Shown in pieces: positions 2,025 through 60,951 of a DNA stretch of 64,000 nucleotides. Made by a program: the position numbers and the translations under genes. The DNA is from Escherichia phage AV115. Under the pieces are notes generated by a model. It was not told the DNA's origin. It searched no databases and worked only from the letters and a program-made list of their open reading frames with translations. Each line of letters starts with the position of its first letter. The first letter of the stretch is position 1. Where the stretch lies: the sequence record OR352945.1. One strand, 5' to 3'.

Positions 2025-2357
2025 TCACTTATAAAGACACGGAATAGCTTTATAGTGGCATGTTACGAATTTCTGTTTAATTTCTTTAGGTTGTTTAAGT
2101 CCCAAAGCCACAAATGGATGTGGAACATTTCGAATTTGTCCAACTGGTAGTGGAGTCAAATCACCGACTTCAACAAAACCTTCAGGAACATCAGGACCTA
2201 CAGAATGAACTACACATAGTTCAGGAACTTCACCTTGAACACGTTTACCAATCACAAGTCCTGATTCGGTAACTTCTTCATCACCTGCTTGAGCGGGTTC
2301 AGAAACCAGAATGACATATTCACCAACAGCACGAATTGGGAGTTGTACTTCAGACAT
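2025..2357 (-). CDS. 31: co-chaperonin gp31 (GroES analogue for capsid folding)
   Basis: 110 aa, near-identical to recalled T4 gp31 (MSEVQ...[22 protein letters not shown]...). Confidence 0.9.
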
Positions 2358-2414
2358 CTTATTTCCTTGTTGTTTGACGATAGATTAATAATACCATACT
2401 ATTCGTAAAGCATA

Positions 2415-2723
2415 TTACATAAGAAGCAAACGTTCTACCGGAGTACCATCAACCGAAATTACTTTATCAAGGCGGAAAGAACGCCACTGACCTAACTCGG
2501 TATCGAATGCTCGAACTGATTCACGAGGTTCAGAACGAACTTCTGTTGATGGGTTACTATTTTCATATTTGACTTCAAGTTCGTCGCGGGAAGCAAACAT
2601 CGTACGAACATCACCGTTAGCCTTTTCAAATACAACACAATGAACGCCTACAGACAGAATAGTTTTAATACGTTCACGAAGAACCATAGTTTCTTGTTCA
2701 GTTAAAATCATATTATTCACCAC
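2415..2723 (-). CDS. hypothetical protein (102 aa)
   Basis: ORF between cd and gene 31. Confidence 0.45.
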   Translation of the reverse strand: MVNNMILTEQETMVLRERIKTILSVGVHCVVFEKANGDVRTMFASRDELEVKYENSNPSTEVRSEPRESVRAFDTELGQWRSFRLDKVISVDGTPVERLLLM

Positions 2724-3294: not shown

Positions 3295-4286
3295 TATTGA
3301 ACCTTATTAATATAAGTTAACAGCTCTTTAGTTTGTTCCCAACTGATGCACGCATCGGTAATGGAAACGCCATAGGACATATTATCAGAAATTTTTTGAT
3401 TTCCTTCATGTAGGAATGATTCTATCATAATTCCTTTGACCAAATCATTAGCTGCTAAATTTTTACCAATACCAATTTGATTGCTATAATGCCCATCAGC
3501 GTTTGCATGGCTACAGTCAACCATTACATAATGATTCAGACCTACTGCCCTTGCTTTGTTAGAAGCTTCTTGAATATCAGAAGAATGATAGTTCGGGCCG
3601 TTGGTCCCGCCACGCAATACGATATGCGTATTCTGATTACCTTCAGCTTCAACAATGCCTACAGTACCATCGACGTCCATACCCATATACCGATGAGGCC
3701 AGGCGGCACTATACATCGCGTCTGTAGCTACTTTAATAGAACCATTGGTTGCGTTCTTGAAGCCTACGCACATCGGTAGACCTGAAGCAATTTCACGATG
3801 TGTCTGACTTTCAGTCGTACGGGCGCCAATAGCAACCCATGAGAAAATACCAGAAAGATACTTAATCGTGAATGGGTCTAATACTTCAGTTGCTAATGGA
3901 AGTCCCATACGTAGAAGTTTACGACACAATGTTCGTGCAACTATAAGACCGTGGTTCATATCAAAACTTCCGTCAAGATATGGATCATTTACAAGACCTT
4001 TCCAACCTACGGTAGTTCGAGGCTTTTCAAAATAAACGCGCATCACTAACAGAACATTAGGAAGACGAGTTTGAAGTTCAGCCAGACGTTTGCCGTATTC
4101 AACAGCAGCAATAGGGTCATGAATTGAACAAGGACCTACAACAATAAGTTTGCGTGGGTCTTCACCGTTCATAATCGAATTAACTTGTTCGCGATGAGAA
4201 GCCACTTGTGATGCGTAAGCTTCCGACAAAGGAATAATCTCAGCCAGTTCTTTTGGAGAAATAAGTTTTCCGACGACAGGTAACAT
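3294..4286 (-). CDS. 3-deoxy-7-phosphoheptulonate (DAHP) synthase, class I AroF/AroG/AroH-like
   Basis: 330 aa with blocks GPCSIHD, MRVYFEKPRTTVGWKGL, AIGARTTESQTHRE, VGFKN, DCSHAN, ITDACISWE that I recognise from E. coli DAHP synthases; ATG at 4284-4286 with TAAGGA RBS. Confidence 0.85.
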   Translation of the reverse strand: MLPVVGKLISPKELAEIIPLSEAYASQVASHREQVNSIMNGEDPRKLIVVGPCSIHDPIAAVEYGKRLAELQTRLPNVLLVMRVYFEKPRTTVGWKGLVNDPYLDGSFDMNHGLIVARTLCRKLLRMGLPLATEVLDPFTIKYLSGIFSWVAIGARTTESQTHREIASGLPMCVGFKNATNGSIKVATDAMYSAAWPHRYMGMDVDGTVGIVEAEGNQNTHIVLRGGTNGPNYHSSDIQEASNKARAVGLNHYVMVDCSHANADGHYSNQIGIGKNLAANDLVKGIMIESFLHEGNQKISDNMSYGVSITDACISWEQTKELLTYINKVQ

Positions 4287-15214: not shown

Positions 15215-16230
15215 CATTATGTTCAGATAAGGTCGTTAATCTTATCCCGGAATTATATCCAGCTGCATGTCACCATGCAGAGCAGACTATATCTCCAACT
15301 TGTTAAAGCAAGTTGTCTATCGTTTCGAGTCACTTGACCCTACTCCCTAAAGGGATAGTCGTTAGGCATTTATGTAGAACCAATTCCACTTATCAGATTT
15401 TACACGGTAAGTAACTAATCCTGATGAAATTTCAAAATGTCTAGCCGCATCGGCTGCACATTCAAAAATAATCCCATCGCATGAAATCTTTTTGATGTTA
15501 GCTGGCTTTTTGCCTTTCATCTTTTCAGATAGTTTAGTTTTAGTTTTTTCTGAATGTTTGTGATTAAAGAACGGGTTATTTTCACCTGAACGTTTTCGGC
15601 ACTTTCCACAAGTATCGGCCGAAGATGGTATGCGAACACCGCATTTACAAAACTTGTGGTTTTCTGGATTCCATCGGCCATTTTTACTTCCGTGTTTACC
15701 ATAAAGAGCTTTCCGACCATCAGGACCAAGCTTAAGCATCTTAGCTTTAACAGTTTCAGCTCGTTTCTTAGCAATTTCTTCTTTTAATGGATGATTTGAA
15801 AGCACATCGCCAAAAGACGCATCAGCAATATTATATCCATTAATTTTAGAATTTAGCTCTTTAATCCAAAAATTTTCTCGTTCAATAATCAAATCTTTCT
15901 CATATGGAATTTCTTCCAGTATAGAGCATTCAAAAACATTACCATGTTTATTAAAAGACCTTTGAAATTTTATAGAAGAGTGAACACCGTTTTCAAGGTC
16001 TTTAAAATGTCTCTTCCATCTTTTCTCAAAATCTTTAGCACTTCCAACATACACTTTACCGTTTAAAGTGTTTTTAATCTGATAAATTCCGCTTTTCATA
16101 AACACCTCTTTTTATATAGAAGTATTTATTAAAGGGTAGTCCTACAATTTAGCACGGGATTGTCTACTAGAGAGGTCCCCCGTTTAGATAGATTACAAGT
16201 ATAAGTCACCTTATACCTAGGCCTAAATTA
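15215..16230 (-). mobile_element. group I intron in td (1016 nt)
   Basis: 5-prime end TAATTTAGGCCTAGGTATAAGGTGACTTATAC and 3-prime end GAACATAATG on the minus strand; length equals recalled T4 td intron. Confidence 0.9.
15362..16099 (-). CDS. GIY-YIG homing endonuclease I-TevI
   Basis: 245 aa from ATG 16097-16099; MKSGIYQIKNTLNGKVYVGSAKDFEKRWKRH closely matches recalled I-TevI. Confidence 0.9.
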   Translation of the reverse strand: MKSGIYQIKNTLNGKVYVGSAKDFEKRWKRHFKDLENGVHSSIKFQRSFNKHGNVFECSILEEIPYEKDLIIERENFWIKELNSKINGYNIADASFGDVLSNHPLKEEIAKKRAETVKAKMLKLGPDGRKALYGKHGSKNGRWNPENHKFCKCGVRIPSSADTCGKCRKRSGENNPFFNHKHSEKTKTKLSEKMKGKKPANIKKISCDGIIFECAADAARHFEISSGLVTYRVKSDKWNWFYINA

Positions 16231-32606: not shown

Positions 32607-32614
32607 AATAAATA
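32607..32614 (+). promoter_or_regulatory. possible late promoter variant (AATAAATA) for holin t
   Basis: One-mismatch late box 18 nt upstream of t start. Confidence 0.3.
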
Positions 32615-32632
32615 TCCTTAAAAGGAGGTATT

Positions 32633-33292
32633 ATGGCAACACCAAAAGTGGCATTTTCACCTAGTGATATTCTATTTGGGTTGCTAGATCGTATTTTCAA
32701 AGATAACGCTACTGGAAAGGTTTTAATGTCCCGAGTAGCGGTAATTATTCTTTTGTTCCTAATGGCACTAATATGGTACAAAGGAAGTATTTTGCTGGAT
32801 TATTATGTAAGAGCTAAGTATGATACTTATACTGAAATAATCCAAAAAGAACGAGCTTTACGTTTTGAATCTGCGGCTCTAGAACAACTGCAAATAGTTC
32901 ATATCTCATCTGGTGCAGATTTTAGTGCTGTGTATTCTTTCAGACCTAAAAACTTAAATTATTTTGTCGACCTTATAGCTTATGAAGGCAAACTACCTAG
33001 CACAATTTCTGAAAAGTCCCTTGGCGGATTCCCGGTGGATAAAACGGCCAATGAATATATAATTCATTTAAGTGGCCGTCATTTCTTATCTAAATCAGAA
33101 TTTGCATTTTTGCCTACAAAATCTAAGACTGCCGAACTTTCTTATATGTATAGTTGTCCATACTTTAATTTGGATAACATCTATGCTGGAACTGTGACGA
33201 TGTATTGGTATAAGGGGAGTAATATACTTGAGGAAGATCGCTTAGCGGCTATATGCAACCAAGCGATCCGAATACTAGGAAGGGCTAAATAA
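32633..33292 (+). CDS. t: holin T
   Basis: 219 aa; near-identical to recalled T4 holin; one N-terminal TM segment. Confidence 0.9.
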   Translation: MATPKVAFSPSDILFGLLDRIFKDNATGKVLMSRVAVIILLFLMALIWYKGSILLDYYVRAKYDTYTEIIQKERALRFESAALEQLQIVHISSGADFSAVYSFRPKNLNYFVDLIAYEGKLPSTISEKSLGGFPVDKTANEYIIHLSGRHFLSKSEFAFLPTKSKTAELSYMYSCPYFNLDNIYAGTVTMYWYKGSNILEEDRLAAICNQAIRILGRAK

Positions 33293-53876: not shown

Positions 53877-54029
53877 AATATTTTCCTCTGTCTTACGGAC
53901 GTTAAGGTCATTTAGCTGATAAGCTTATAATATCATGCCCTCAGGTAGTGTACACTCTTTTTTCGTAAAATGCTTTAATTTTTTATGTGTTATAATGGTT
54001 CTGAGTTCCATCCGGTTATTCCAATTCAG

Positions 54030-54638
54030 TCAGTAACTGACAATAGACAGATTCCAGATTGTATAACGTCCATCTTGAATAATAGAATCTACACGCAGTG
54101 TAGTCCCTATAGGGAGCATAAATTCACATTCGTCAGATATAAGTCTAGCATTAGACCGTCTTGTCGCTTCAGGGAAAGCTCCATTGAACTCACAAGATGG
54201 CGCAGCCAGAATCATGTTAAGCATATGTTCACGGAAGTTGAAAGCAAATGGTGCATCTTTGATGCAGAACATATTAAATGTTCCGTAAAAATTATACGAA
54301 GCAAAGTTACGTGCTACACCGAACACTGGGCTGAAGCTCATTACTCTGTCAAATTTAATAATACTACCAATGCCTTTATCATCGAGTGTGGCCATAGTTT
54401 TCTTAGAGATTCCACGATACATTGTCTCAGGAACAGAAGACGTCCAATTTCTACGAACGATTGAACTTAACTCCTGTTGAATACAGTCTGGCTTGTTTTC
54501 CATACACTGCCAAAGGATGCTTTGTTCATTATCGTTGAATTGACTATCAATTTCGTACTGCAATACATCTTGATATTCGGGGTTTTGAGCACGACGAACC
54601 ATTTCTTCAATTTCACACTCGTTATACGGCATAAACAT
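54030..54638 (-). CDS. ADP-ribosyltransferase (ModA/ModB family)
   Basis: R-S-EXE triad context: YRG, SFS, ECEF; 202 aa. Confidence 0.75.
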   Translation of the reverse strand: MFMPYNECEIEEMVRRAQNPEYQDVLQYEIDSQFNDNEQSILWQCMENKPDCIQQELSSIVRRNWTSSVPETMYRGISKKTMATLDDKGIGSIIKFDRVMSFSPVFGVARNFASYNFYGTFNMFCIKDAPFAFNFREHMLNMILAAPSCEFNGAFPEATRRSNARLISDECEFMLPIGTTLRVDSIIQDGRYTIWNLSIVSY

Positions 54639-56858: not shown

Positions 56859-57095
56859 TTAACCACTTACTGATGTAGGGGTAAACATTGCAGCGTTCTT
56901 AGTTTTCCAAGTTGCTGCATCAGAAACGACATCAGAATAAGCTGCCTTTTCTGACGGAAAGATTTGGTAATGAGAATCTGCAATCCGATGTTCGTTTGAA
57001 TAAATCTCAAACGGTACAGAAACTTCCATACCTTTGACTTCTTTGCCTTCACCAGCCGGACGTGTAAAGGTTTTGATATTAACGTAACCACCCAT
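56859..57095 (-). CDS. soc: small outer capsid protein Soc
   Basis: 78 aa; GYVNIKTF...HYQ.FPSEKAAYS matches recalled T4 Soc; AAGGAG RBS; late promoter upstream. Confidence 0.8.
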   Translation of the reverse strand: MGGYVNIKTFTRPAGEGKEVKGMEVSVPFEIYSNEHRIADSHYQIFPSEKAAYSDVVSDAATWKTKNAAMFTPTSVSG

Positions 57096-57126
57096 AATTA
57101 ACTCCTTTGTTGTTTAATTACAGGTG

Positions 57127-57134
57127 TATTTATA
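57127..57134 (-). promoter_or_regulatory. late promoter (TATAAATA) for soc
   Basis: Exact TATAAATA on minus strand about 30 nt upstream of soc ATG. Confidence 0.65.
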
Positions 57135-57140
57135 ACTTAA

Positions 57141-57662
57141 TCAGTAACCATTATCCTGACGTTCAAAGTTGTGTTGGTTTTTCAAGTAGTAAAGTTTAAA
57201 GATTTCTTCAGCGGAAAGACCCAAACCTTGGAACATATTCAGAACAAAGTGGAGAATATCAATCATCTCGAATTTAATTTCAAGCTGGTCTTCAGGAGAC
57301 AGTTCATCGATACGACGATTACGATATTCAGCATGTTGTGCTTTCCATGGCTTCCACACAGAGCTGGCAGCTTTTTCACCGTTGGACATACCACCGAGTG
57401 AAGTCAGCAGTTCACGGAATTCATCATCAATATAATCTTTCTGATTACGCAGCCAATCAACAACATCACCGGCAGTAGCCAATTCATCAGGATGTTTGTT
57501 ATGTTCAGGCTTGTCATTTGCCAGACGAACCTGTAAAGATTTCTGCATATCAAGCATTACCTGCAGTGGGTCTTTATCTTCGTGAATCAGAGCATTAAAA
57601 TAAGCTTCTTCTGCTTTATCAACACCAGAAATAAGTTGTGAACATTCGTTAAAGTGTGCCAT
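57141..57662 (-). CDS. 56: dCTP pyrophosphatase gp56 (MazG-like)
   Basis: 173 aa from ATG 57660-57662 (MAHFNEC...), AAAGGA RBS; matches recalled T4 gp56 N-terminus. Confidence 0.85.
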   Translation of the reverse strand: MAHFNECSQLISGVDKAEEAYFNALIHEDKDPLQVMLDMQKSLQVRLANDKPEHNKHPDELATAGDVVDWLRNQKDYIDDEFRELLTSLGGMSNGEKAASSVWKPWKAQHAEYRNRRIDELSPEDQLEIKFEMIDILHFVLNMFQGLGLSAEEIFKLYYLKNQHNFERQDNGY

Positions 57663-57751
57663 TATTTTTCCTTTCAATTCAGTATAAGAGAGTTAATTCT
57701 AACATTAATTTTATAAAGCGTAATAAATAATAAGGTAACTAAGGAGATATT

Positions 57752-57949
57752 ATGTTTAAACTTCCATCGTTAATCAACGCTATTAAAGGCAATAAAAAGA
57801 AAACTGCTATCGCTGCAATAGTTGTAGGTGGCATTATTTCATGGAACTTCGGGATTGCACCATTGTTAGTTGCCAATGGTATTATAGTTCCTTCTGTTCC
57901 ATTGGATACTGTAGTTGATTTGGCCTTTGCTATTATAGGGCTTGTTTAA
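57752..57949 (+). CDS. small hydrophobic protein (65 aa) on plus strand
   Basis: AAGGAGAT RBS 6 nt before ATG; two predicted TM segments; sits between minus-strand genes 56 and 61. Confidence 0.4.
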   Translation: MFKLPSLINAIKGNKKKTAIAAIVVGGIISWNFGIAPLLVANGIIVPSVPLDTVVDLAFAIIGLV

Positions 57950-58968
57950 ATCTTCGAATAACGAGATAATCTCATTTTAGCATGCAACCCACTTGAAATA
58001 TTCTGTTTCATATATTCTAAAATTTCTTGTGGTGTTGCATTTTCTTTCATTACCATATCATTCACATCCTTTGAACTCCATGGAGCTCGGTCCCAGAACA
58101 TGACACGTTCGCCTGCATCAACTAATCGCTTCATACGAGCTATAGTATCCGGATGCCTAGGTTCATTATCCATTACCCATACCCGGCGTTCTTTAAATGG
58201 TACCACATCTAAATCTATTGAGCCGCCTGTAATAGCGATTGCATTGGGTATGAATAAACTATCAATAGGACCTTCCATTACCCAGACGTCCCCTTCCTTA
58301 ACACGTTCAACACCATAAATTTTTGTTGCAGACTCAAACGCTTTAATAGTGATATATTTCTGAGGAGCATCTTTACGAAGTGCACGTCCTTGGAATGACT
58401 CGGCCTTCCCATCTTTATTAAAAATAGGAATCACTAAACGCGGTTCAGGAATCTCTTTCTTATACGTACCTGGTTGAATCTTGTTGACCAATTTAGGCCA
58501 TTCTAATGTGAACCATAATCTGTTCCATGATTCTTTAGGAATGCATCGAGACTTAACATATTTCACAATAGGATGCTCTTCAGGCAACTTGTCCAGACGA
58601 GAACAAGACGGCAAAGAATTTATAGTCTTTTTCTCTGGCTCCGGCTTAGCTTCAGGAACCTTTTCAATCTTTGGTTCCATTCTAGCTTTTTCTTTACGAA
58701 CTTCCATTAGATATTCGCGATAAAGCTCTTCATCATACTCTTTTAAGTATCCGGAAATTGTATTGTGGTATTGACAGTTATAGCAATGTACATTACCAGG
58801 AGTACCACCGTAATACCATCCACGAGCTTTCATTGCATCTGTCTGAGAATCGCCACAAACTGGACAACGAAACGTTAATTTAAATGTGCTTGAATTATTG
58901 ATTTGTCTAAAACGAGGGAGGTGAGAAAACGCACGATAAGCAAATTCATTATCTATCCATTCAGCCAT
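57946..58968 (-). CDS. 61: DNA primase gp61
   Basis: 340 aa; zinc-ribbon CPVCGDS...CYNC and Toprim region; near-identical to recalled T4 gp61. Confidence 0.9.
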   Translation of the reverse strand: MAEWIDNEFAYRAFSHLPRFRQINNSSTFKLTFRCPVCGDSQTDAMKARGWYYGGTPGNVHCYNCQYHNTISGYLKEYDEELYREYLMEVRKEKARMEPKIEKVPEAKPEPEKKTINSLPSCSRLDKLPEEHPIVKYVKSRCIPKESWNRLWFTLEWPKLVNKIQPGTYKKEIPEPRLVIPIFNKDGKAESFQGRALRKDAPQKYITIKAFESATKIYGVERVKEGDVWVMEGPIDSLFIPNAIAITGGSIDLDVVPFKERRVWVMDNEPRHPDTIARMKRLVDAGERVMFWDRAPWSSKDVNDMVMKENATPQEILEYMKQNISSGLHAKMRLSRYSKI

Positions 58969-59693: not shown

Positions 59694-60353
59694 TTAACCT
59701 CGATTCATAAATGCATTAAATATTTGGTCATCAACAGAAATTTCTAATTCGACTTCAATTGTTTCAGCCTTTTCTTCAGGTGGTAATTCGTATCCACACA
59801 CTACAATTTTTTCATCGATATCAAAATATACAGAAGCAATACGATTAATGTTATTTTCAGTTAAGTCTAAATCAACATCAACATCTTTTTGACCTACACT
59901 TAAAGGATAACTAATGCGGGTTATTTTATTATCTTTAACAAAGAGTCCGCCAACGTACTCTGTACTACGTTTGAAGTTTACACGTTTCCGAATTGAAAGA
60001 TATGATACATCTTTACCGTGAGCTCGGCTCATAGGACATAATGAATAGCTAGAATAAGAGATGTCAAATCCTACACCTTCAATATGAGCCAACGTGTCAT
60101 GATTAAACCAATTATAATCATATGCCAAATCCATTATATTGTAATATGTGAAAGGCACAGGATTAACATCATATGTTGTACCTTTAAAATCTGCCCAGGC
60201 AACGATTTCGTTATCTTTAACAATTACAAAAATTACACCAATATGGTATCCGTTATTATTTTCATTCGGCGTTATATTATAACATTGTGCATTAGGAAAT
60301 TTACCATATTTAAATGGCGCATTTTTGTGCATATAATAAATCATATTATTCAC
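59694..60353 (-). CDS. hypothetical protein (219 aa)
   Basis: ORF only. Confidence 0.45.
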   Translation of the reverse strand: MNNMIYYMHKNAPFKYGKFPNAQCYNITPNENNNGYHIGVIFVIVKDNEIVAWADFKGTTYDVNPVPFTYYNIMDLAYDYNWFNHDTLAHIEGVGFDISYSSYSLCPMSRAHGKDVSYLSIRKRVNFKRSTEYVGGLFVKDNKITRISYPLSVGQKDVDVDLDLTENNINRIASVYFDIDEKIVVCGYELPPEEKAETIEVELEISVDDQIFNAFMNRG

Positions 60354-60639
60354 CTGTGATTTCGGTTACGATATCTTTGTTATCGAAATTAGGGTCACAA
60401 TACAAAACATAGTTGTACTGCATGATACCGCCAGACTTAAGTTGTTCAACAACTTTATTAACCATATTAGGACGGTCTCGTTTAGTGATGTTCATGATAT
60501 CAGAGAAGATTTGTTGTTCAACATCTTCTTGATTTGCAGTCATTGACCACTCACAGAGGTCTTTATCATAACCTGCCGTAACTGGAGCCGGTGCACATGA
60601 TACTGCAAGTAAGATTGCTGCCAATGATAACTTTTTCAT
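60346..60639 (-). CDS. sp: periplasmic spackle protein Sp (superinfection exclusion, lysozyme inhibitor)
   Basis: 97 aa with signal peptide; AGYDKDLCEWSMTA...GGIMQYNYVLYCD matches recalled T4 Sp. Confidence 0.8.
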   Translation of the reverse strand: MKKLSLAAILLAVSCAPAPVTAGYDKDLCEWSMTANQEDVEQQIFSDIMNITKRDRPNMVNKVVEQLKSGGIMQYNYVLYCDPNFDNKDIVTEITGE

Positions 60640-60702: not shown

Positions 60703-60951
60703 TTATTCTTTTTCGCGAATAATAATTACTTGTTGAGGCTGCTGAGCAGATTTCTTTTCGGCAACGATAGACCAAATTAAAGTTCCAATCCAACCAATCA
60801 TCGTCCAGTTAAAGAGTAAAGATACAAAGAAGATTGCTGTTGTGCTTTTTGTGCCACGAATAAGTGCTATTACCCAAGGCAACATGTAAATGATGATTGA
60901 ACCAATACCTGCGATTAAAACTGCTACTGAACTAGCTACGAATAATTCCAT
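60703..60951 (-). CDS. small inner-membrane protein (82 aa, two TM helices)
   Basis: Hydrophobic segments; early promoter at 60975-61010. Confidence 0.45.
   Translation of the reverse strand: MELFVASSVAVLIAGIGSIIIYMLPWVIALIRGTKSTTAIFFVSLLFNWTMIGWIGTLIWSIVAEKKSAQQPQQVIIIREKE

Follow-up and report, generated by a model that had tools for sequence, protein, structure and literature searches.

Between genes 56 and 61 of Escherichia phage AV115 (OR352945.1), the 64-kb stretch of DNA that we analysed (the window) contains a 65-codon open reading frame (ORF) on the plus strand. The ORF starts with ATG, translates as MFKLPSLINAIKGNKKKTAIAAIVVGGIISWNFGIAPLLVANGIIVPSVPLDTVVDLAFAIIGLV, and follows a strong Shine-Dalgarno site (Table 1), as an earlier sequence-only reading of this DNA had stated; the stretch quoted there, AAGGAGAT, occupies positions 57741-57748. 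Both neighbours lie on the minus strand. To the left is gene 56, encoding dCTPase (57141..57662; PHROG 173, E=1.8e-45), and to the right is gene 61, encoding primase (57946..58968; PHROG 47, E=3e-102), which converges on the ORF so closely that the two stop codons overlap. The ORF is isolated on its strand within the early replication block, again as first described. From 33.3 kb to the window end, all ORFs of at least 150 aa are on the minus strand with one exception (53985..54464, plus), and that exception falls almost wholly inside a minus-strand ORF at 54030..54638. The closest supported plus-strand gene is holin t (32633..33292; PF11031, E=1.9e-91), about 24 kb away. The late-promoter-like box that had been reported upstream of the ORF, AATAAATA, can also be read in the sequence.

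Table 1. Features of the ORF between genes 56 and 61, in window coordinates
Feature	Position	Strand	Remarks
Late-promoter-like box AATAAATA, A at -13	57722..57729	+	22 nt before ATG; T4 consensus TATAAATA at -13..-6
Inferred late transcription start (+1), 6 nt past box	57735	+	Leader of about 17 nt; placed by analogy with T4 box position
Shine-Dalgarno site AAGGAG	57741..57746	+	5 nt upstream of ATG
CDS, 65 aa	57752..57949	+	RB69ORF029w; member of PHROG 2024
Basic cluster KGNKKK, codons 12-17	57785..57802	+	Predicted cytoplasmic by positive-inside rule; alignments
Predicted transmembrane helix, codons 18-41	57803..57874	+	Hydropathy; AlphaFold 15-41; TMHMM 21-41 (RB69ORF029w)
Predicted short amphipathic helix, codons 51-62, with acidic D/E52 and D/S56	57902..57937	+	AlphaFold; hydrophobic moment 1.2-1.4; conservation
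TTAA, overlap of the stop codons of the ORF (+) and gene 61 (-), genes convergent	57946..57949	.	Read in sequence; T4 arranged alike

Is this ORF new? It is already catalogued as RB69ORF029w and as PHROG 2024, and nothing in the ORF as such is new. In RB69 the counterpart, RB69ORF029w (NP_861719), is 96.9% identical and lies likewise on the plus strand between genes 56 and 61. The match to PHROG 2024 ('unknown function') is full length, with residues 1-65 aligned to profile positions 1-65 of 65 (E=1.4e-26). We found no difference that would separate the ORF from either entry; they are the same gene. The T4 member lacks a RefSeq annotation. The counterpart in HX01, D299_gp163, is a 'hypothetical protein', a label that the ORF carries in hundreds of genomes. 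The region belongs to Mosigvirus; it matches Escherichia phages AV109 and AV114 at 100% identity, and HX01, APCEc01 and further members of that genus at 97-98%.

The gene is widespread in T-even phages. Using the ORF protein as a tblastn query, we matched 692 phage records, with identities of 93-100% in Mosigvirus, about 50-54% in Tequatrovirus and 43% in the Gaprivervirus CJ20. Two more divergent homologues downstream of gene 61, one of 66 aa in the Dhakavirus UP19 and one of 63 aa in the Jiaodavirus KEN22, were missed by tblastn but match PHROG 2024 at E=1e-24 to 1e-28; across the Dhakavirus, Jiaodavirus, Gaprivervirus and tandem-paralogue versions the E-values for this profile range from 1e-20 to 1e-28. 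The UP19 subtype occurs in a further 140 records and the KEN22 subtype in a further 169, from phages of Escherichia, Klebsiella, Salmonella, Citrobacter, Enterobacter, Edwardsiella and other Enterobacterales. Altogether the family is found in roughly 1,000 Tevenvirinae genomes of Enterobacterales, at the same place and on the same strand. In Mosigvirus, Tequatrovirus, Gaprivervirus, Dhakavirus and Jiaodavirus alike, the gene is on the plus strand and converges on the 3' end of gene 61. Conservation among T-even genomes and an undisrupted frame in relatives, on which the sequence-only reading had staked its ORF, both hold: T4 itself has a homologue, and 685 of the 692 matching records carry an intact frame, with coverage of at least 80%. 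The gene is missing from the gene 61 locus of Karamvirus KMB20 and Krischvirus GEC-3S, and the family is absent from gene-61-bearing relatives among the Aeromonas, Acinetobacter and Vibrio phages and the cyanophages.

Two subtypes can be told apart by their N-termini. Subtype A begins MGxxFYQIWKL and subtype B begins MxKLxxLxxAIKGNKK; the window ORF and the T4 homologue are of type B. Tandem A and B copies are present in ESCO47, VR25 and the metagenomic contig L012. The T4 homologue has 66 codons (NC_000866.4 17738..17938, plus strand) and sits inside the 309-nt gap between dam and gene 61, where RefSeq NC_000866.4 carries no annotated gene. That the T4 reference annotation lacks a conserved gene is a useful by-product of this analysis, since omics and knock-down screens built on that annotation never score the gene.

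Database searches yielded only the family itself. The ORF protein had no match in Pfam or NCBIfam at E-values up to 10, nor in PADLOC, and its sole match among PDB sequences was YejA at E=0.07, a chance hit. When 1.84 billion representative proteins were searched with a profile, six clusters emerged, all of them the PHROG 2024 family, and a word-index profile search returned 118 clusters at 90% identity, all from T4-like phages of Enterobacterales and none with a credible functional name. Foldseek with the AlphaFold model against BFVD recovered, at E<1, just 63-aa proteins of T4-like phages that resemble family members, although a three-helix 65-mer is a query for which fold searches are incapable of meaningful matches. 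An Rfam scan of positions 57000-58300 gave one sub-threshold chance match.

The ORF is almost certainly a real coding gene, judging from what is conserved across genera. The sense frame keeps its ATG, its Shine-Dalgarno site, its stop codon and its length (63-69 aa) across five genera, with AGGAGG or AAGGAGG in the same position in T4, CJ20, L012, UP19 and KEN22, and it is on this conservation that we regard the plus-strand ORF as a gene. dN/dS for the gene is 0.08-0.25. Between the window and L006 there are 11 synonymous and 3 non-synonymous changes (omega 0.08), and between T4 and L008 there are 9 and 4 (omega 0.12). Within genera most substitutions are synonymous, and between genera omega is 0.1-0.34 where computable. 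The gene may be dispensable in the laboratory, as suggested by two T4-derived records that could each contain a sequencing error: in T4_ev240 the homologue is frameshifted in an A-run, and in the mutant clone T4_583L the copy is disrupted.

When would such a gene be transcribed? In T4 late promoters the box occupies positions -13 to -6 (PMC1524935). A perfect box is present at 32 of the 50 T4 late sites listed in PMC2988020, and A(-13), the commonest variant, at 9. Conservation of T(-13) is poor in RB69 and other T4-like phages (PMC1524935). The ORF has what defines a T4-type late gene, a TATAAATA-type box about 6 nt before the predicted start of transcription and no -35 element, and we found no sigma-70-like site on the plus strand near it. 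One sigma-70-like site on the minus strand (57777-57749) was dismissed as being at chance frequency. The same AATAAATA box, followed by a Shine-Dalgarno site and ATG, precedes holin t in the window (box at 32607, ATG at 32633) and also an I-TevI-like endonuclease gene, and a perfect TATAAATA precedes soc and genes 34 and 36 (the last two named by order and size).

Every lineage that we examined has an xATAAATA box 12-22 nt before the first plus-strand ATG, in flanking DNA that cannot be aligned. The box is AATAAATA in the window and RB69 (22 nt to the ATG, 21 in RB69), in T4_ev240, which lacks dam (22 nt), and in Dhakavirus UP19 (21 nt). It is GATAAATA in T4 and its relatives (19-21 nt). It is CATAAATA in CJ20 (16 nt), upstream of the tandem pair in L012 (22 nt) and in Jiaodavirus KEN22 (12 nt), where a second box, GATAAATA, lies 21 nt farther upstream. 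Where T4-type phages differ in their upstream neighbours (T4 with dam, L011 and T4_ev240), similarity restarts at the box. With both strands counted, the 64-kb window has just 16 copies of ATAAATA, and the retention of this core amid unalignable flanks therefore points to a footprint rather than to chance.

The strand of the ORF leads to the same conclusion. Early and middle transcripts of T4 have a single polarity, whereas late transcripts may have either (PMC2988020). Since that single polarity is the one shared by the neighbours of the ORF, a gene on the opposite strand could only be late. Taking the sequence, the conservation of the box and this polarity together, we consider it probable that the gene is transcribed only late, from the AATAAATA box, by RNA polymerase modified by gp55, gp33 and gp45. 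Some observations weaken this case. A hidden Markov model scan for late promoters in RB69 reported 31 sites, none of them at RB69ORF029w (PMC1524935), and the T4, CJ20, L012 and KEN22 boxes have G or C at -13, where documented late promoters of T4 more often have T or A (PMC2988020). Moreover, the Mosigvirus box lies directly against the MotA box of a predicted divergent middle promoter of gene 56 on the minus strand (GCTTTA at 57719-57714 and TAGAAT at 57701-57696 in the window), which was predicted in RB69 as Pm:16038 (PMC1524935 supplement), so part of the local conservation could belong to that promoter. The T4 context has no such MotA box, however, and the ATAAATA core is still kept there. 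In the searchable literature we found no transcript, ribosome-profiling, proteomic or mutant data for the ORF, and likewise nothing on late transcription of T4 in the interval from dam to gene 61 or on small T4 proteins missing from the annotation.

Could the conserved element be something other than a protein-coding gene? The ORF might be a by-product of promoter and terminator DNA, or its constraint might come from an antisense frame that continues gene 61 beyond its stop codon. This frame is open throughout the ORF in both the window and T4, and because it shares wobble positions with the sense frame and its omega is low too, dN/dS alone does not discriminate between the two. Its openness follows, however, from the T-rich second codon positions of a hydrophobic ORF. 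Neither a start codon nor a Shine-Dalgarno site is conserved for the antisense frame, which is also broken in CJ20 and L012, both of which have a terminator that sets gene 61 apart. The interior of the T4 homologue contains no minus-strand ORF of at least 25 aa apart from one of 28 aa that overlaps only the first 22 nt, and in L012 no minus-strand ORF of at least 30 aa is listed within the homologue. Set against the sense-frame signals kept in five genera, the idea that the ORF is not a gene is scarcely credible. Another proposal is that the late plus-strand RNA is the main product, acting antisense to gene 61 and aiding the late shut-off of primase mRNA, with the peptide being secondary. Several T4 sites are transcribed from both strands at different times (PMC2988020). 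The ORF and gene 61 overlap at their stop codons, and neither the window nor T4 has a terminator between the two genes, so that a late transcript would continue antisense into gene 61. In CJ20, L012 and KEN22, by contrast, a G+C hairpin with a T-run stands between the ORF homologue and gene 61, and antisense read-through is therefore not conserved. An RNA function would also leave unexplained why start, Shine-Dalgarno site, length and invariant residues are preserved at the protein level while the DNA can no longer be aligned, and we regard it as very unlikely. A terminator-like hairpin inside the ORF (57859-57880) was dismissed because such structures occur there at chance frequency.

The encoded protein very probably resides in a membrane. 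It has a GRAVY of 1.24 and a net charge of +3, and residues 18-65 are uniformly hydrophobic on the Kyte-Doolittle scale. The AlphaFold model, built from 11 sequences (mean pLDDT 79.8), has helices at residues 3-11, 15-41 and 51-62, with a loop at 42-50. For RB69ORF029w, TMHMM predicted one transmembrane segment, at 21-41, and SignalP 3.0 no signal peptide (PMC1524935 supplement). The 'two hydrophobic segments' of the sequence-only reading are thus borne out as to hydrophobicity but not as to number: topology prediction and the model agree on one long helix, and the second, at 51-62, has 12 residues and is too short to span the membrane. On balance, these models favour an N-in topology in which a single transmembrane helix (about residues 18-41) leads to a tail of some 24 residues, with its acidic amphipathic helix, at the periplasmic face. 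Alternatively, the hydrophobic stretch, 48 residues in all, might fold into a hairpin or undergo signal-peptidase cleavage. The further suggestion of a late-expressed membrane protein is plausible in both its parts, which we infer from the conserved box and strand polarity for the timing and from hydropathy, TMHMM and AlphaFold for the location. The functions offered with it as examples, a superinfection or lysis-timing factor, find no support in our results.

Conservation within the protein is unevenly distributed. It peaks at residues 31-47 (pairwise identity 0.51) and is lowest at residues 18-30 (0.17). Among 115 family members, W31 and N32 are invariant, P37 is present in 113, and G43, P47 and G63 are near-invariant. 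Position 39 is Ala in 105 members, and 112 have Ala, Thr or Ser at position 41; the window ORF reads L39-V-A41. Position 52 is D or E in 110 members, and D or S occupies position 56. The protein ends in ...DLAFAIIGLV, a hydrophobic and acidic C-terminus that lacks basic residues. An invariant Asn in mid-membrane together with a conserved juxtamembrane tail suggests binding to a membrane protein, or self-association.

How might such a protein act? Late transcription from the AATAAATA box by the gp55/gp33/gp45-modified polymerase would be followed by translation from the strong Shine-Dalgarno site into the 65-aa protein. Once inserted in the inner membrane, the protein would have its basic N-terminus on the cytoplasmic side, a single transmembrane helix, and some 24 residues at the periplasmic face. 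The Trp31-Asn32 face of the helix and the juxtamembrane tail (G43, P47 and D/E52) would then bind another membrane protein. Late transcription, translation and inner-membrane location, taken jointly, are likely, and we read the ORF as a genuine accessory gene of T-even-type phages. On the modelled topology, the product is most likely a late, non-essential inner-membrane accessory protein with protein-protein contacts at the periplasmic side.

As the partner, we would prefer the late lysis machinery, namely holin T or its regulators, in which case the protein might tune lysis timing or lysis inhibition without being required for lysis. Such known late-expressed small membrane proteins of T4 as T, RI and the spanins all serve lysis. 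This precedent and the AATAAATA box shared with t are what favour a lysis partner. T4 RI, a membrane-tethered periplasmic regulator of holin T, offers a parallel, since this antiholin, too, is small, comes from a T-even phage and combines an N-terminal membrane segment with a short C-terminal part facing the periplasm; the ORF protein would likewise be present late, at the time when holin T acts. We detected no sequence or fold similarity between the two, however, and the ORF tail of about 24 residues is hydrophobic and not a globular domain. We know of no genetic link of the ORF to an r phenotype. The distance of 24 kb from t, the absence of homology to lysis proteins and the lack of a charged C-terminus also speak against a role in lysis, and lysis timing is accordingly a tentative suggestion about the mode of action, one that may well prove wrong.

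Other readings of the same protein have to be weighed against a regulator of lysis. The main rival keeps the gene and its membrane site but makes the target a host envelope component, a superinfecting phage (late exclusion) or a membrane-embedded host defence (counter-defence). The family occurs only in T4-like phages of Enterobacterales, and its variable copy number and two divergent subtypes resemble the outcome of an arms race; but the taxonomic limit may be mere phylogeny, and dN/dS is low rather than diversifying. The nearby 61.x block carries genes for envelope and anti-defence functions, namely spackle, an Imm-like protein and an AdfA domain, and the Imm-like gene of the window (60703..60951, by the HX01 annotation) is 3 kb from the ORF. 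T4 Imm (83 aa) is similar to the ORF protein in being a hydrophobic T-even inner-membrane protein of comparable size. It is encoded on the early strand, though, and has two clear transmembrane segments, and the known exclusion proteins of T4, Imm and Sp, are both early genes. Across Pfam, NCBIfam, Foldseek with BFVD, and PDB sequences, we found no homology of the ORF protein to Imm, Sp, RI, RIII, T or any holin family, and it matched no PADLOC model; Spackle, by comparison, is recognised in related loci as PF25676. A target of this kind is conceivable, but we think it doubtful. In a second reading, residues 1-41 would be a long cleavable Sec signal peptide, and signal peptidase I would cut after A/T/S41, releasing as the active species a peptide of 24 residues, acidic and hydrophobic, NGIIVPSVPLDTVVDLAFAIIGLV, to the periplasm or outer leaflet. 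The small residues at 39 and 41 fit the -3/-1 rule, the helix breaker Pro37 is at -5, a basic n-region (K12-K17) lies ahead, and the best-conserved residues are at and beyond the proposed cut. Yet the core before Pro37 has about 19 residues (23 to A41), more like a signal anchor than the short h-region (about 7-15) of a cleavable signal. The published predictions for RB69ORF029w were negative for a signal peptide and positive for a transmembrane segment, the AlphaFold helix runs unbroken through the proposed site, and small residues are equally suited to helix packing. Cleavage is improbable on this evidence. Finally, the protein could itself be a holin or pinholin, as the homologue from OE5505 is named in UniProt ('Holin', A0A482MZV5). 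We dismissed this label as annotation noise; other labels in the family, 'DNA packaging ATPase' and 'dCTP pyrophosphatase', are equally stray. Like class II and III holins and pinholins, the ORF protein is small (these have 60-70 aa), has at least one transmembrane segment and is probably late. Unlike them, it has no match to a holin family in Pfam or NCBIfam, even at E-values up to 10, its C-terminus is not the charged, hydrophilic tail of a holin, and it lies in no lysis cassette, with dCTPase and primase genes as neighbours and no adjoining endolysin. Holin T is already encoded in the window, and T4 phage null for t does not lyse its host. A holin is thus among the least probable identities for this protein.

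Why does the gene matter? For the window itself, it is a routine, correctly spotted and already annotated hypothetical gene. Within T-even biology, it is among very few plus-strand, and hence late, genes inside the early replication block. Its conservation in roughly 1,000 genomes, together with a late-type box of its own, makes it a clean and easily deleted candidate for a late envelope function. The comparison also lends support to xATAAATA variants, including those with G or C at -13, as late promoters. A bolder view, which we think unlikely, is that the gene encodes an overlooked late envelope component of T-even phages, either the small membrane protein or a 24-residue peptide freed by signal peptidase, that binds holin T, its regulators or a host envelope protein and sets lysis timing, lysis inhibition or late exclusion. 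If this were so, six decades of T4 genetics could have missed it, since it is very small, non-essential and almost undetectable by tryptic proteomics. The protein yields a single tryptic peptide of detectable size, LPSLINAIK in the window ORF and LMALVNAIK in T4.

Gene 56 and the 65-aa ORF are separated by 89 nt, in which two divergent promoters are predicted to lie back to back (window 57696-57729). The plus-strand late box of the ORF (57722-57729) directly adjoins the putative MotA-type middle promoter of gene 56 on the minus strand, which is the counterpart of RB69 Pm:16038, a prediction by Nolan et al. 2006. AATAAATA also precedes holin t and an I-TevI-like GIY-YIG homing endonuclease, which suggests that the genome of the window regularly uses the late-box variant with A at -13. 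The perfect TATAAATA before soc is a late promoter sited on the 'early' strand, and its counterpart in the published RB69 late-promoter list is Pl:15279.

The ORF has a 66-codon homologue in T4, which lies together with GATAAATA, AAAGGAGG and an ATG in the 309-nt gap between dam and gene 61. RefSeq NC_000866.4 annotates no feature in this gap; the homologue is listed as a 'hypothetical protein' in other T4 records, such as OZ209057. T4 and RB69 encode only type B, the subtype to which the window ORF belongs, and Dhakavirus encodes only type A. Some phages (ESCO47, VR25 and that of the metagenomic contig L012) carry two divergent paralogues in tandem, type A followed by type B, whose genes overlap by 8 nt downstream of one single CATAAATA box.

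Is the gene required, and is its frame the one under selection? Frameshifts interrupt the homologue in two laboratory-derived T4 records, T4_ev240 (L014, 1410-1460) and T4_583L (L015, 1490-1570). The gene may therefore be dispensable in culture, or these frameshifts may be sequencing errors in homopolymer runs. On the opposite strand, the gene 61 frame stays open for about 65 codons beyond its stop (window 57739-57949, minus strand), antisense to the entire ORF, and in T4 it is likewise open past the stop, antisense to the homologue. This open antisense frame is probably a by-product of composition. Because both strands are open, dN/dS alone cannot separate the two frames.

Coordinates of promoters, homologues and neighbouring genes
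Feature	Position	Strand	Context
AATAAATA, then Shine-Dalgarno site and ATG	32607-32635	+	before holin t (32633..33292)
AATAAATA, then Shine-Dalgarno site and ATG	16130-16103	-	before endonuclease (15362..16105, -)
Perfect TATAAATA	57127-57134	-	just upstream of soc (56859..57095, -)
Predicted gene 56 middle promoter	GCTTTA 57719-57714; -10 TAGAAT 57701-57696	-	sequence
T4 homologue	NC_000866.4 17738..17938 (L002 3239..3439)	+	dam-61 gap
Tandem type A, type B	L012 2305..2508, 2501..2698		metagenomic contig
Tandem type A, type B	locus tags 00131/00130		ESCO47
Tiny 'hypothetical proteins'	L001 2213..2326, 2333..2410, 3555..3632	+	HX01 RefSeq annotation
Hotspot loci	L018 2595..3245		Jiaodavirus KEN22
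Hotspot loci	L017 2326..2610, 3164..		Karamvirus KMB20
Hotspot loci	dam, segF		T4

Genes 56 and 61 flank an interval that is an insertion hotspot. It contains dam in T4 and homing endonucleases in Jiaodavirus and Karamvirus; in KMB20, the small membrane gene is absent from the interval, which holds an unrelated 94-aa ORF on the gene 61 strand. The HX01 RefSeq record annotates three more tiny plus-strand proteins (25-37 aa) in the block around the ORF, one of which overlaps the start of gene 56. In contrast to the 65-aa ORF, these look like over-prediction. The early strand carries an envelope-protection pair at a distance of 2.4-3 kb from the ORF. One member is a spackle homologue (60346..60639, minus strand) that bears a signal peptide; next to it is a protein of 82 aa (60703..60951, minus strand) that has two hydrophobic segments and is annotated in HX01 as 'immunity to superinfection'.
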